A DNA stretch of 64,000 bases, taken from NCBI GenBank assembly GCA_041640035.1, contig JBEQBC010000001.1, forward strand, positions 160,001-224,000, written 5' to 3'. Positions 51,042-60,333 of this stretch are shown piece after piece. The notes under the pieces were generated by a model. The model was given only the letters and a program-made list of their open reading frames with translations, was not told the DNA's origin and searched no databases. How positions within the stretch are numbered: position 1 is the first letter of the stretch; each line of letters opens with the position of its first letter. The position numbers and the translations under genes are program-made. The DNA comes from Candidatus Nanohaloarchaea archaeon. GTDB lineage: Archaea; Nanohalarchaeota; Nanosalinia; Nanosalinales; Nanosalinaceae.

Positions 51042-51110
51042 TATTTTGTCTTAATCACCTGTTGAGAAAGCGGTTCACCCATTTTGGAAATTATAGTTGG
51101 GAAAACCGAT

Positions 51111-51179
51111 TCAGAAGCTATAGAAGTAGAAATAGCTGGAGCTACTCATCAAAGATGCAGATAGAGTGTTTCCAGCCAT
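51111..51179 (-). CDS. Tyr/Phe-rich leader peptide MAGNTLSASLMSSSSYFYFYSF
   Basis: ATG about 25 nt after TATTTAAT; YFYFYSF end; hairpin 51071-51108 follows the stop. Confidence 0.68.
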   Translation of the reverse strand: MAGNTLSASLMSSSSYFYFYSF

Positions 51180-51245
51180 ACCCAAGATGTTACCCGGTGA
51201 TAATTAAATACCTTTTGACTAAGGGAAAGAAGAAAAGGAAGGATA

Positions 51246-52001
51246 TCATCCCTGTTTTCTGGCTTTGAAACCTACCATATCATCATATCCTGTCGTTGAC
51301 ATCAACACAGGGTAGAAATCTTCATCTGCCTTCAGCTTGTCTCCTGGTTTCTCGGCGTATGTTTCTCCTTTCTGTACTTTCTGGAAGTTCTCCTTCATGA
51401 ACTGATATCCGCTGCCCTGAACAGTCTCGTATATCCGGTACTTCTCAGGGTTCCTCTGTTTGACTTCTCCAGGAAGAACATCATTCGCCATCAGGAAGTT
51501 CTTCAGCACCGAGTAAGCGTTCCTGATCGTCTTTTCCGAACGCACATATCCACATTCAACAGCAATCCTATCACATCCGGGTATCTGATGACTGTAAGCT
51601 TCCTCGATGCTCACCGCTTTATCCACGCCAAGGTTCCTCAACTGTTTACTGGAGAAGTCCGAGCCTTCAGTCTCCAGTCCGAACGCCTCCGGATGTGAGA
51701 AAGAGGAGTGTATGTCCAAAACTTTCTTTCCTCTGATCTCTTCTTCGATTTTCCTGGCCAGTTCCTTTTCATGAGTGTCCTCTGAGTCTGTGCTCCAGAC
51801 ACGGTTGAGGTCGTCTTCCAGCTGGCTTCTACCCTTGCTGTATGCTTTCTCGTTCGCGAATACGAACTTGACAGGTTTCTGAACTTCAATGTCTCGATGC
51901 ATCAGTCTTTCTACTGCCAGTTTGCCGCATGGTTCGTTTCCGTGTACGCAGTACATGACCGCGTGTTCAGGTTCGCCTTCTCCCAGTTTCTTTACCTTCA
52001 T
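51246..52001 (-). CDS. Succinylglutamate desuccinylase/aspartoacylase (M14) family
   Basis: HGNE, DLNR, LDIHSS, VECG. Confidence 0.9.
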   Translation of the reverse strand: MKVKKLGEGEPEHAVMYCVHGNEPCGKLAVERLMHRDIEVQKPVKFVFANEKAYSKGRSQLEDDLNRVWSTDSEDTHEKELARKIEEEIRGKKVLDIHSSFSHPEAFGLETEGSDFSSKQLRNLGVDKAVSIEEAYSHQIPGCDRIAVECGYVRSEKTIRNAYSVLKNFLMANDVLPGEVKQRNPEKYRIYETVQGSGYQFMKENFQKVQKGETYAEKPGDKLKADEDFYPVLMSTTGYDDMVGFKARKQG

Positions 52002-58282: not shown

Positions 58283-60013
58283 TCAAACTACTCTCGGACT
58301 AAGTTCCTCCTGAACTTCCGGCGAACCTGAAAGGCGTTCCTCTACATATTCTGCGAAGCCATCCGCGTACTCCGGAGCCATTGCTTCCGCAGTCGCCATC
58401 ACATCATCATCGTAGACCTCTCTGAATACTTCTCCCCAGACCTCTTCATCATCGTAGTCTGGAACTGTTTCGGGATTCGATGGGTCGATACCTTGCTGTT
58501 CCATTGCTTCACGGATCTTATCGCCGTGAGGCATTATCGCAGCTTTCGCGAGTGCTACGCTTGGTTCGTCTTCATAGTTCTGACGGGAGTTTCTGTACTC
58601 GAATCCTCCGGTCTGGAATTTGGGTCTTACATCGTGGTGTAGTCCGCCGATGTGTTGTTCCGAAAAGTTGCCCTTATGATACTCCTTGAGCTCGTCTTCG
58701 CTCATACCTGTTAGATCGACCGTTCCACGGACTCGTTTCAATCCGTCCTCTCCATCTGTGACTATCTTGGTGAAATCTACTTCGCCGTCCTCGATATACT
58801 CTCTCGGCGTCTTTGGATTTTCAGGATCGACTGTCAGCATAGCCACACTTTCATAGTCAAAGTCTTCAGGTACATCGTCCTTGAACTCGACATGTTCTCT
58901 GTCAGGTTTGGCTATCCAAGCCATGTGGTGGCCGGTCATGTACTCATCTACCATTCCTTGGAAGGCATCTCCGTCACTGTCCATAATCGAATCGATGACA
59001 TTCCATGGTGTACCGGTTCTATCAAGCGCTGCCTCATCTACATCGGCATCATCGAGGAAGTGCTGACCATATGCACTGTTCTCCCAGTAGTCCTGGTTAA
59101 CACCGGTTTCCGGCTGTCCCTCATCTTCCTCGCTGTAAACATTAGAGGTCAATACATCGAAAGCTCCTTCAAACACTATCCGGTAAGCCATCTCTTCAGA
59201 CATGCGTTCGTCTACATCGATTTCTCCGTCATCGCTCCAGAGACCGGATGTGAGCTGTGTGGATCCTCCGAACATGTTCTCCATTATCTGAGGTCCGAAG
59301 ATCGTACTGATGTAATCGGCACAGTACTCCACAGAGCTGAAATGATCGTAAAACTCCTCTGAGAACTCTACAGCTTCATCTCGTCCGTATTCGTCTCCTA
59401 AGCCACGCTTGACAACTTCACGGTCACCGATCTCGTCAGGTGTCCTCTCCGGTTCACGGAATTGACGGGTTAAACCTTGATCTGCGAATTCAAGGTCGGG
59501 GTGGTTCTCCTGTATGTATTTTCTCGTTCCTTCTCTCAGGCTTTTCAGTACATCAAGAAGTGTTCCGAAGTTTCCGGAGCCGTCTATCTGGAAGGCACCT
59601 GAGTCTATCTCGATCTGAGGTCCGATCTCCCAGTCTGCTGCTGGAGCACCGATAACCTGATCTGACTCCTGACTTTCTTCAACCTCTATCTCTGCTGGTC
59701 TATCCTCGAAATGACCTTTTTCCTTAACGCCCTTGAGTTCGAAGCTGAATTCTTCTCCGTAGCCGTCTACATTCTCTTCGAGTTCTTCCTCGATGCTCTC
59801 CCAAAGTCCTTCGCTGATTATATCCTGATAATCTGGGGCTAACGGCATAACACCGTCTTCTTCTCTGACTATCGGGTTCTCGCTCTCCACGCCCATGCCG
59901 GTTGGCCCGACATTTTCCTCATAGTTGTCCTTGAATTCCTCTGTGAACTCTTCTACGATTTCATCGTAGTCAAGTTCTGCGGCAGCGGTGGAGGTTTCGC
60001 CTGTTGCTGACAT
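58283..60013 (-). CDS. Divergent glutamate-cysteine ligase-like (COOH-NH2 ligase) protein
   Basis: GMGVESE, EIGPQIEIDS, GSTQLT, HHDVRPK...FEYRNS; GGAGGT SD. Confidence 0.68.
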   Translation of the reverse strand: MSATGETSTAAAELDYDEIVEEFTEEFKDNYEENVGPTGMGVESENPIVREEDGVMPLAPDYQDIISEGLWESIEEELEENVDGYGEEFSFELKGVKEKGHFEDRPAEIEVEESQESDQVIGAPAADWEIGPQIEIDSGAFQIDGSGNFGTLLDVLKSLREGTRKYIQENHPDLEFADQGLTRQFREPERTPDEIGDREVVKRGLGDEYGRDEAVEFSEEFYDHFSSVEYCADYISTIFGPQIMENMFGGSTQLTSGLWSDDGEIDVDERMSEEMAYRIVFEGAFDVLTSNVYSEEDEGQPETGVNQDYWENSAYGQHFLDDADVDEAALDRTGTPWNVIDSIMDSDGDAFQGMVDEYMTGHHMAWIAKPDREHVEFKDDVPEDFDYESVAMLTVDPENPKTPREYIEDGEVDFTKIVTDGEDGLKRVRGTVDLTGMSEDELKEYHKGNFSEQHIGGLHHDVRPKFQTGGFEYRNSRQNYEDEPSVALAKAAIMPHGDKIREAMEQQGIDPSNPETVPDYDDEEVWGEVFREVYDDDVMATAEAMAPEYADGFAEYVEERLSGSPEVQEELSPRVV

Positions 60014-60061
60014 CAGGAAGACCTCCGAGAAACAGTTGAATTATTGATTTTAGAAATAGTT

Positions 60062-60127
60062 TTAGAACTGTCCGTAGATGTGGATCTCGTCCTGCAGAAC
60101 GCGTCCACCTGTGATTGCTACTGACAT
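60062..60127 (-). CDS. Leader peptide MSVAITGGRVLQDEIHIYGQF
   Basis: ATG 25 nt after TTTAAAA; shares GGTGGACGCGTTC with ProRS uORF2. Confidence 0.6.
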   Translation of the reverse strand: MSVAITGGRVLQDEIHIYGQF

Positions 60128-60333
60128 ACCATGCCTGTTAGTAACTTAACGGTTTTAAATGTTGTTCAGTTCCACATCTTTTCCAGAGAACCTGCGAGCC
60201 ATCTATATAAATCTAGGTCGAGTATACTTTGGTAGAGCGAGCACGGTCTGTCTAAGCGGATCGTTGTTAGAGAACTGCTCTGAATTTAAGTTTCTGATCT
60301 ATTATACAAACAAAAAATGGAGGATAAAGGATA

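Follow-up and report, generated by a model that had tools for sequence, protein, structure and literature searches.

Four genes encoding orphan proteins, each preceded by a small open reading frame (ORF), were identified in a window of 64,000 nucleotides (nt) from a Candidatus Nanohaloarchaea archaeon (GenBank assembly GCA_041640035.1, contig JBEQBC010000001.1, positions 160,001 to 224,000); the window is the whole stretch of DNA analysed here. The source genome (G000) comprises about 0.98 Mb in 24 contigs, the window being C1:160001-224000, and the window proteins are very acidic. Every gene between 48800 and 60013 is on the minus strand (-). In the order of transcription they are the 576-amino acid (aa) orphan (58283-60013 (-)); the 633-aa orphan (56091-57992 (-)) with an M20 (DapE-like) hydrolase 2 nt on (54967-56088 (-)); a DEAD-box helicase; the 483-aa orphan (51998-53449 (-)), which overlaps the gene of a 251-aa AstE/AspA-type hydrolase (51246-52001 (-)); and the 392-aa orphan (49863-51041 (-)), followed after 4 nt by an M20 hydrolase of the ArgE/DapE type (48800-49858 (-)). 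A non-coding gap of 145-321 nt lies 5' of each of the four orphan genes. An initial annotation, made from the letters of the window, had taken these four as amide-forming genes with attenuation-like leaders and had joined them to the leader of a prolyl-tRNA synthetase (ProRS) gene in a set of five units gated by charged-tRNA supply.

Each of the four gaps contains a TATA-like box, an ATG whose distance from the box, counted from the hexamer's first base, is 29-35 nt, and an ORF of 22, 25, 30 or 21 codons, in units 1 to 4 respectively. The initial annotation had described the same layout with a distance of 24-29 nt, and it was found at all four genes; the shorter distance fits if it is counted from the end of the box. 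The ORFs had also been said to fall below the cutoff of the ORF track, and all of them are indeed under 60 aa.

Unit 1 lies 5' of the 392-aa gene and has its TATA-like box (TATTTAATTATC) at 51200-51212 (-), the hexamer starting 29 nt before the ATG. Its ORF (51111-51179 (-), 22 codons) ends in a C-terminal Tyr/Phe run, with the tail SSSYFYFYSF, and contains an internal hairpin (GCTGGA/TCCAGC) directly 5' of the run; the folding z of the ORF is -2.48. A second mini-ORF of 13 codons (51041-51082 (-), MGEPLS…) carries an in-frame GGTGAA, and its stop overlaps the main ATG of the 392-aa gene (TAATG). Unit 2 lies 5' of the 483-aa gene, with the box at 53685-53692 (-), at -32, and an ORF of 25 codons (53581-53658 (-)). 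This ORF ends in a Phe/Ser run (tail …SGSFSFFFEF, elsewhere written FSGSFSFFFEFMK or …SGSFSFFFEFMK), with an internal hairpin (GGCTGCCA/TGGCAGCT) 5' of the run and another hairpin, of 10 bp, beginning at the stop codon (53554-53581 (-)).

Unit 3 lies 5' of the 633-aa gene. Its box (CTTTAAAAC, 58248-58256 (-), at -35) is conserved in all homologous leaders, and its ORF (58126-58218 (-), 30 codons) has an Ile-rich run with the tail LIAIIIISIIV; an internal hairpin, P1 (GGCTAACC/GGTTAGCC), ends directly before the run. A structured leader (57993-58125 (-)) separates this ORF from the 633-aa gene. Unit 4, 5' of the 576-aa gene, has its box (ATTTAAAAC) at 60153-60160 (-), at -31, and an ORF of 21 codons (60062-60127 (-), MSVAITGGRVLQ…) that carries TGGRVL. 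In this ORF an in-frame Shine-Dalgarno (SD)-like GGTGGA (60104-60109) is followed by CGC GTT and then by CTG (Leu, 60095-60097), the proposed sensor codon. C-terminal runs are thus present in three ORFs, as the initial annotation had it; the hairpin that it placed at or just after the stop of these three was found in units 2 and 3 and is weak in unit 1. The folding z after the stop is -0.73 in unit 1, -1.45 in unit 2 despite the 10-bp stem, and -3.48 in unit 3, where 0 of 200 shuffles fold as well; unit 4 has no hairpin there (z +0.22).

A genome-wide scan of G000 identified, in intergenic DNA, 72 ORFs of 10-50 codons close to a TATA-like box. An aromatic or I/L/V run closes four of the 72, and units 1-3 are three of these four. 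A stronger argument against chance than these counts is conservation in other genomes. For unit 3 the upstream DNA of homologues was surveyed in 6 related genomes, 6 named genome records and 13 metagenome contigs. With duplicates removed, 16 distinct loci retain intact upstream DNA, and all 16 have the ORF, the enzyme identity being as low as 26-27%; the tail is still visible in two more loci cut by N runs or contig ends. The N-halves diverge freely and the tails stay I/L/F-rich (…AIIIISIIA, …LIIISIIMV, …FIQVFLIILFIL, …IAIILFILIIS); distant relatives have Leu, Val and Phe beside Ile in the run. In a nucleotide alignment of 12 leaders, all 39 gap runs within the ORF have a length divisible by three, compared with 17 of 88 after the stop, and the 12 stops fall in one column. 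Of 25 columns each at codon positions 1, 2 and 3, the variable gap-free ones number 13, 14 and 19, a third-position excess that is slight and weak as a signal. One of the unit 3 loci (L031, JBLGBK010000008.1) belongs to a record titled as a Colwellia polaris metagenome-assembled genome and carries the nanohaloarchaeal 633-aa gene (72% identity) with its leader; the public record has probably been misbinned or mislabelled.

The ORF of unit 1 is present at five of six orthologues and at one gene fragment, an aromatic-run ORF being identified 5' of the orthologues in genomes G003, G023, G022 and G056 and of the fragment in G018. Among the unit 2 loci, three are of the SFSF type, one combines a GG motif with an aromatic run, one is partial and one is without the ORF. 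The homologous leaders in G061 (…SDSFSFMFMF) and G063 (…SDSFSFISMF) have a hairpin that covaries; in G030 a GG-type motif is joined to the run FWYFSMFMW, and in G044 a hydrophobic tail was found at a partial hit. In unit 4 the sequence (T/K)GGRVL is kept in four of four loci, as TGGRV-L in G002 and KGGRV-L in G024 and G008. When residue class was compared with full sequence, units 1-3 were found to keep mainly the residue class in the C-terminal half. Judged from these comparisons, the small ORFs are conserved as reading frames; a lack of conservation, named by the initial annotation as one of the findings that would tell against regulation, is contradicted by the frame-preserving gaps and by the recurrence of the ORFs in other genomes.

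A whole-genome scan for the nucleotide motif of unit 4 identified small promoter-proximal ORFs 5' of other genes. The element that they share, called here the GG-type element, is formed by an in-frame SD-like GGTG(G/A)N (encoding G-G/E/D), two codons (x, then F/V/L/P/I/A) and then the sensor codon. The GGRV that the initial annotation had noticed in unit 4 is there, as part of this element and not as an oddity of the peptide: it contains the in-frame GGTGGA, and the sensor codon (Leu) lies two codons on. In G000 the element was identified 5' of the genes of six aminoacyl-tRNA synthetases (aaRS), namely ThrRS and SerRS (recognized with Pfam) and ValRS, GlyRS, ProRS and class II LysRS (above NCBIfam curated cut-offs), and also 5' of a class I glutamine amidotransferase (GATase) gene, of the gene for a 221-aa GNAT, in unit 1 (the second mini-ORF) and in unit 4. 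The sensor codons in the six aaRS leaders are those for T, S, V, G, P and K, at ThrRS, SerRS, ValRS, GlyRS, ProRS and LysRS respectively; six cognate codons out of six are expected by chance at about (1/20)^6. The ProRS leader ORF of the window (41530-41577 (+), MNYSTKGGRV-P…) has a Pro sensor codon and precedes the ATG-delimited ORF of ProRS at 41719-42849 (+), whose true start is probably earlier. Its grouping with the four units was borne out, the element having a Pro sensor in all five ProRS loci, and the set of five proved too small, as at least 11 such leaders are present in the genome, six of them at aaRS genes.

The element was then surveyed in G000 and 40 relatives, the aaRS N-terminus being placed by tblastn and an ATG-initiated ORF with the motif in its first 16 codons being reported. 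Loci lacking the N-terminus or upstream DNA (2 Thr, 1 Ser, 1 Pro, 2 Val) were dropped before counting. The 41 genomes gave 130 evaluable synthetase loci, of which 87 have the element, and the sensor is cognate in 86 of these 87; the detector selects on the ATG and on xGTG, so that the 87 leaders were chosen on these features, the next codon not being selected on. By family, the element is present in 23 of 28 evaluable loci of ThrRS (23 cognate), 20 of 29 of SerRS (19 cognate), 5 of 5 of ProRS (5 cognate), 16 of 28 of GlyRS (16 cognate), 7 of 13 of LysRS (7 cognate) and 16 of 27 of ValRS (16 cognate). The genomes are related, and therefore the independent observations are the six aaRS families rather than these locus counts. 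The sole non-cognate case, one SerRS locus, looks like a chance match. In a frame-agnostic control with 176 SD-like hits upstream, a stop-free upstream ATG shares the motif's frame 97 times; the corresponding counts for the two remaining frames are 19 and 17.

The geometry of these leaders is compact. The sensor is codon 7 in 53 of the 87 aaRS leaders, the median distance from the leader ATG to the main ATG is 114 nt, and a TATA-like hexamer lies 22-43 nt before the leader ATG in 71 of 87 (mostly 29-39 nt, with a peak at 32-33 nt). The SD character of the element is supported by G000 itself: GGTG occurs within -18..-4 of 123 of 924 predicted starts and of 22 of 924 in a control window, so that GGTG appears to be the local SD core. 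A search for the 16S 3' end in G000 gave a single short anti-SD match in apparent coding sequence, which does not confirm the anti-SD sequence, and SD usage is therefore deduced from the enrichment of GGTG before starts. The Gly codon in G000 is usually GGA (52%), whereas GGT encodes the first Gly of the motif in 21 of 23 ThrRS leaders, the other two having CGT GGT (K-R-G).

Variants of the element were observed at several places. The ProRS loci L135 and L136 (G021 and G022) have two GG-type leader ORFs in tandem, with a Pro sensor in both. At C2:62600-63300 (-) of G000, partly covered by L030, two GG-type mini-ORFs have Trp after the motif (…TGGYF-W and …SGERF-W); behind the first there is only a 9-codon ORF, and the second overlaps a GNAT-like ORF that apparently starts, in another frame, at the GTG of its own GGTGAA. 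At C8:1507-1974 (+) of G000 (L028), two TATA-proximal ORFs beginning MKSGG…, one of them with a run of five Gly, lie 5' of Orc1/Cdc6; these are not of the GGTG type.

This pattern points, with a probability of roughly 0.7, to the small ORFs being ribosome-read cis-regulatory leaders that report the supply of charged tRNA to the downstream genes. The idea of charged-tRNA gating put forward by the initial annotation has in this way gained strong comparative support, the cognate codon standing at a fixed place in 86 of 87 leaders from six aaRS families. The leader ORFs would lie at, or within a few nt of, the 5' ends of the transcripts, and their sensors would be of two designs. The first is an anchored single codon, proposed for unit 4, the second mini-ORF of unit 1, ProRS and the five other aaRS genes. 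With the sensor in the A site, the SD-like element would lie about 5 nt upstream of the P-site codon; this is the spacing of an initiation SD, and we propose on these grounds that the element could pair with the 3' end of the 16S rRNA and keep a translating ribosome at the sensor codon. The second design is the run, proposed for units 1-3, with 4-8 codons of one class at the C-terminal end (Tyr/Phe; Phe with Ser; Ile with Leu/Val), a conserved ORF-internal hairpin before the run and structure at the stop after it. Scarcity of the cognate aminoacyl-tRNA would halt the leading ribosome at the sensor, and the fate of the same RNA downstream would change.

The two designs meet in paralogues (about 30% identity) of the 392-aa protein. 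In G003, G020, G055 and G058 (L020, L024, L056 and L057) one leader carries KGGRF-I and KGGRV-L and then a second ORF ending …IILLIILIL, and the leader of a paralogue in G053 (L059) has GGRV-L followed by a Leu-rich stretch. Single-codon sensors and runs that name the same amino acids in the same leader are expected if the runs are also sensors. By this reading the code would assign Leu to unit 4, Ile to unit 3, Phe with Ser to unit 2 and Tyr/Phe to unit 1, and the enzymes with their hydrolase partners would take as substrate, or respond to, Tyr/Phe in the case of the 392-aa protein, Phe for the 483-aa protein, Ile for the 633-aa protein and Leu for the 576-aa protein. The leaders of L020, L024, L056 and L057 also have a third, A/C-rich ORF after the SD, overlapping or abutting the main start (MTLQH… in four loci). 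In unit 2 (53450-53540 (-)) and in L017 the matching position has ATT instead of ATG, and the frame with this ATT closes at the main ATG or shortly ahead of it (ATGA and TGAATG).

Conserved RNA structure was identified around the runs. Units 1-3 have in common an ORF-internal hairpin whose 3' arm ends directly before the run, with compensatory substitutions between homologues; in unit 3 examples of P1 are GGCTAACC/GGTTAGCC, GGCTGACC/GGTCAGCC and GACTGACC/GGTCAGTC. In the leader between the unit 3 ORF and the 633-aa gene, a stem, S1, begins 2-4 nt after the ORF stop, and the S1 loop contains the 5' arm of a long helix of about 18 bp, an arrangement that implies either a pseudoknot or two alternative states. 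The SD of the 633-aa gene (GGTGG) pairs with a CCACC. For P1, S1 and the long helix together, 91% of the cells are paired, compared with 41-50% when the partners are slid, and 14 pairs are changed on both sides, compared with 2-6 when slid; the shuffled mean is 8.0, and 1 of 500 shuffles reaches 14. Structure was also observed at aaRS genes. In the ValRS leaders L184-L189 the SD-like motif lies, together with the Val codon, inside a stem that shows compensatory changes, a covarying hairpin begins directly after the Gly codon in the GlyRS leaders L140-L143, and several ThrRS leaders have the leader stop codon in the loop of a conserved hairpin (GCCAG-CTTTAACT-CTGGC).

The step by which a stall would reach the downstream gene is proposed with much less confidence than the sensor reading as a whole, whichever step is considered. 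From the known amino-acid leaders and from the homeostatic logic of aaRS genes, the response to a stall that we consider likeliest is a rise in downstream expression. By halting near the 5' end, a ribosome would block further traffic on the leader ORF, and this might relieve either occlusion of the downstream ribosome-binding site (RBS) or an early loss of transcripts in the T-rich tract that follows the ORF; a short tract of this kind is present in 72 of the 87 aaRS leaders. In unit 3 the stall may also remodel the S1/long-helix structure.

The attenuator of bacterial type that the initial annotation had envisaged, either a hairpin with a U-run or an unmasking of the RBS, was not found. A scan for a hairpin plus T-run was negative for the coding (minus) strand 3' of all four ORFs. 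Unmasking was modelled by partition-function folding, without pseudoknots or kinetics, of leaders in which the bases covered by a ribosome were masked, the ribosome being placed on the run (its start or its middle), the sensor or the stop. No consistent opening of the stretch from SD to AUG was obtained, the mean accessibility being 0.58, 0.58, 0.59 and 0.61 over 16 unit 3 leaders and 0.45, 0.46 and 0.48 over the 87 aaRS leaders. Minimum free energy folds switch in some leaders only. The model of RBS unmasking was set aside on the inconsistency of these effects.

Promoters of the downstream genes were also considered. A TATA-like hexamer lies 26-38 nt before the main ATG in 34 of the 87 aaRS leaders, mostly those of Thr, Ser and Gly, with none for Pro and Lys and one for Val. 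At many ThrRS, SerRS and GlyRS loci (e.g. L073-L101), and in the window at 60030-60050 (-), the motif YCAAAAYC-N2-TTAAAYA occurs about 30 nt before the main ATG, often directly after a small CAGC…GCTG hairpin; it looks like a promoter with a transcription factor B recognition element (BRE) and a TATA box, and the ThrRS loci without a leader ORF retain the same BRE/TATA-like motif. The presence of the proximal TATA at ORF-less loci implies that some downstream genes can be transcribed on their own, and the aaRS genes with this box probably have a promoter of their own in addition. By eye, no proximal TATA-like box was seen before the main start of unit 3, and unit 4 has a weak one. The initial annotation had named separate downstream promoters as evidence against gating; they appear at some aaRS genes and possibly in unit 4, and not in unit 3.

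These promoters, and the missing terminator and unmasking, weigh against leader control, as do several other results. The upstream DNA of the 392-aa orthologue in G068 and of the 483-aa homologue in G041 was examined and is without a leader ORF. The same is true of 43 of the 130 evaluable aaRS loci and of four more aaRS-like loci of G000 placed by tblastn (presumed IleRS, LeuRS, a class II enzyme and AspRS). The selection built into the survey detector and the relatedness of the genomes, given above with the counts, reduce what the survey can carry. The cognate rule was observed at aaRS genes, and for the four enzymes the amino acid is predicted from the leader. Finally, we infer from conserved frames, codons and helices that the ORFs are translated, that ribosomes stall on them and that the transcripts are leaderless, and likewise in which direction the response goes and by what output step.

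The first alternative is that the leaders are structured RNA only, either riboswitch-like or binding tRNA in the manner of a T-box, with ATG and frame being incidental and the "sensor codon" pairing with an anticodon. The covarying helices of the unit 3 leader would suit such an RNA, as would the covarying stem around motif and sensor at ValRS and the covarying hairpin after the sensor at GlyRS, and the cognate-codon logic is that of the T-box specifier. Against it, every indel in the unit 3 ORF has a length divisible by three, and the upstream ATG favours the motif frame, the 97 to 19 and 17 of the control; it was on this last result that direct reading of tRNA was put aside as a candidate. 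The leaders are also short, with no conserved platform for the elbow or acceptor end of a tRNA, and Rfam, searched at E up to 10 with window positions 48000-62000 and five G000 loci (four aaRS leaders and the GATase leader), gave no T-box match and no match to any RNA family, the permissive hits being chance-level snoRNA and miRNA only. This explanation is considered unlikely.

The initial annotation had offered another alternative, in which the peptides are precursors resembling those of RiPPs (peptides made on the ribosome and modified after translation). They would be substrates of the adjacent ATP-grasp, GNAT and ligase-fold enzymes, and would be trimmed by the M20/AstE-type hydrolases. 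ATP-grasp, GNAT and peptidases are a known RiPP gene set (the microviridin type), the ligase fold resembles PafA/Dop, which act on a small protein, and each enzyme family has a peptide class of its own that persists across distant homologues. The distribution of the ORFs disfavours it: the same kind of ORF lies 5' of six housekeeping aaRS genes, with the cognate codon, and 5' of GATase and other GNAT genes; paralogues of one enzyme family have different peptide types; and one orthologue each of the 392-aa and 483-aa families is without a peptide gene. Within the ORFs, the would-be leader N-halves are not conserved whereas the RNA helices around the stop are, and no C-terminal residue is conserved for a carboxylate ligase. 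Four separate pairs of precursor and enzyme would be required, with no transporter. We regard a RiPP origin as very unlikely.

No better placed is the possibility that the ORFs encode independent small proteins, such as short hydrophobic membrane peptides or enzyme subunits, which are merely co-transcribed. Units 1-3 do have conserved tails of hydrophobic or aromatic character, which speaks for such proteins; however, the hydrophobic stretch has 10-15 residues only, the peptides of unit 4 and of the aaRS leaders vary in length and in the sequence after the sensor, and conservation concerns the class of residue, along with the nucleotide motif and the RNA structure. ORFs arisen by chance in AT-rich 5' regions can practically be dismissed, for although small ORFs as such are common (the 72 TATA-proximal ones of G000), chance is contradicted by the conservation, the frame-preserving indels and the cognate rule.

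The four orphan proteins have no match in Pfam, NCBIfam or PDB sequences, either as single proteins or as profiles, and where the sources are named their families were identified in nanohaloarchaeal records only (Candidatus Nanohalobium, Nanosalina, "Nanohaloarchaea"). The 633-aa protein has 44 homologues, all unnamed or "hypothetical". Its AlphaFold (AF2) model, built from a 35-sequence alignment with a mean predicted local distance difference test score (pLDDT) of 91, matches the plant glutamate-cysteine ligase (GCL) 2gwc (Foldseek E 2e-12, TM 0.72 on the target) and also E. coli GshA, YbdK and PafA/Dop; on this model the protein has the glutamate-cysteine-ligase fold. The 576-aa protein, judged by a profile comparison with the 633-aa family (hhalign 77%, E 2e-5, 424 columns, conserved motifs in register), is a remote homologue of it with the same fold. 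For the 392-aa protein the model (23 sequences, pLDDT 89) matches 289 PDB chains at E <= 0.001, the top matches all being GNATs (E ~1e-7), and it indicates a GNAT fold, in tandem.

The 483-aa family, with 21 representatives found, is tentatively assigned to the ATP-grasp enzymes. Four of 18 scanned homologues hit PF02222 (best E 0.005, weak) and three RimK, and the motifs resemble what we take to be those of ATP-grasp; the window protein itself gave no match to an ATP-grasp model. BLASTP among the four enzymes found no paralogy, and only the profile comparison linked the 576-aa to the 633-aa protein; a profile comparison of the 483-aa with the 392-aa protein gave no match. The term "amide-forming", applied by the initial annotation to all four genes, is thus supported at the level of fold for the 633-, 576- and 392-aa proteins and tentative for the 483-aa protein. 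The 633- and 392-aa folds are like those of the GCL/YbdK/PafA-Dop and GNAT families, and unlike these families the orphans match no curated sequence model. Adjacent "GshAB" genes, possible counterparts of the orphan families, are annotated in cultivated nanohaloarchaea (PMC10266531). Elsewhere in the window, positions 46001-48000 have a GC content of 0.37 and a strong positive GC skew, compared with about 0.45 elsewhere.

Amino-acid-responsive leader peptides and T-boxes are textbook bacterial devices. Classical transcription attenuation by leader peptides is found in the enterobacterial amino-acid operons and in pheST, and it shares with the present leaders an ORF rich in the regulating codons, RNA structure by the leader stop and the control of an aaRS operon. 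The present leaders differ in having no hairpin-plus-U terminator on the coding strand, archaeal transcription machinery, promoter-proximal and probably leaderless ORFs, and single-codon sensors. With the T-box they share the gene-by-gene control of aaRS and the display of the cognate codon in the leader, under a family-wide rule by which the amino acid can be read from the leader. Unlike the T-box, they match no Rfam model and are much shorter, and since the codon is in a conserved frame behind an ATG, its reader is most likely the ribosome and not free tRNA.

The nearest described system is that of mycobacteria, where leaderless polycysteine short ORFs are reported to be Cys-responsive attenuators forming a "Cys ribulon", and a stalled ribosome blocks the duplex that hides the downstream RBS (bioRxiv 10.1101/834739). 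The likeness lies in a short ORF at the 5' end of a transcript that is leaderless (there, and by our reading here), in codons of one amino acid as the sensor, and in independent control at the level of the operon, with many loci sharing one signal through the ribosome. The mycobacterial type is bacterial and concerns one amino acid and its own biosynthetic loci, whereas here an archaeon without amino-acid biosynthesis would read at least 10 amino acids. Here, too, many sensors are single codons behind an SD-like anchor, the targets include aaRS genes, and RBS unmasking was not seen in the folding tests.

In the literature searched, with most subscription journals and supplements outside the scope, no archaeal counterpart was found and none for Nanohaloarchaea, and the DPANN papers that were checked concern other matters. 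The leaders would represent ribosome-mediated leader control marked by a single-codon design that is new and by a cognate rule for aaRS genes, the first archaeal case in that literature. A wider proposal, which we hold at even odds, is that ribosome-read control by amino acids extends over the whole order in Nanohaloarchaeota, with an SD-like anchor on a leaderless mini-ORF and one codon for each charged tRNA. It would be the first amino-acid-specific control by leader ORFs in Archaea and a counterpart of the T-box, and the same code would assign Ile, Leu, Phe and Tyr/Phe to four ligase/acyltransferase-hydrolase pairs, which may handle hydrophobic amino acids derived from the host. If the reading is true, an obligate symbiont without amino-acid biosynthesis would match its synthetases and amino-acid-handling enzymes to the supply from its host in this way, a compact design of SD-like anchor and one codon would be added to the known sensors, and the amino-acid specificity of orphan enzymes would be predictable from their leaders.

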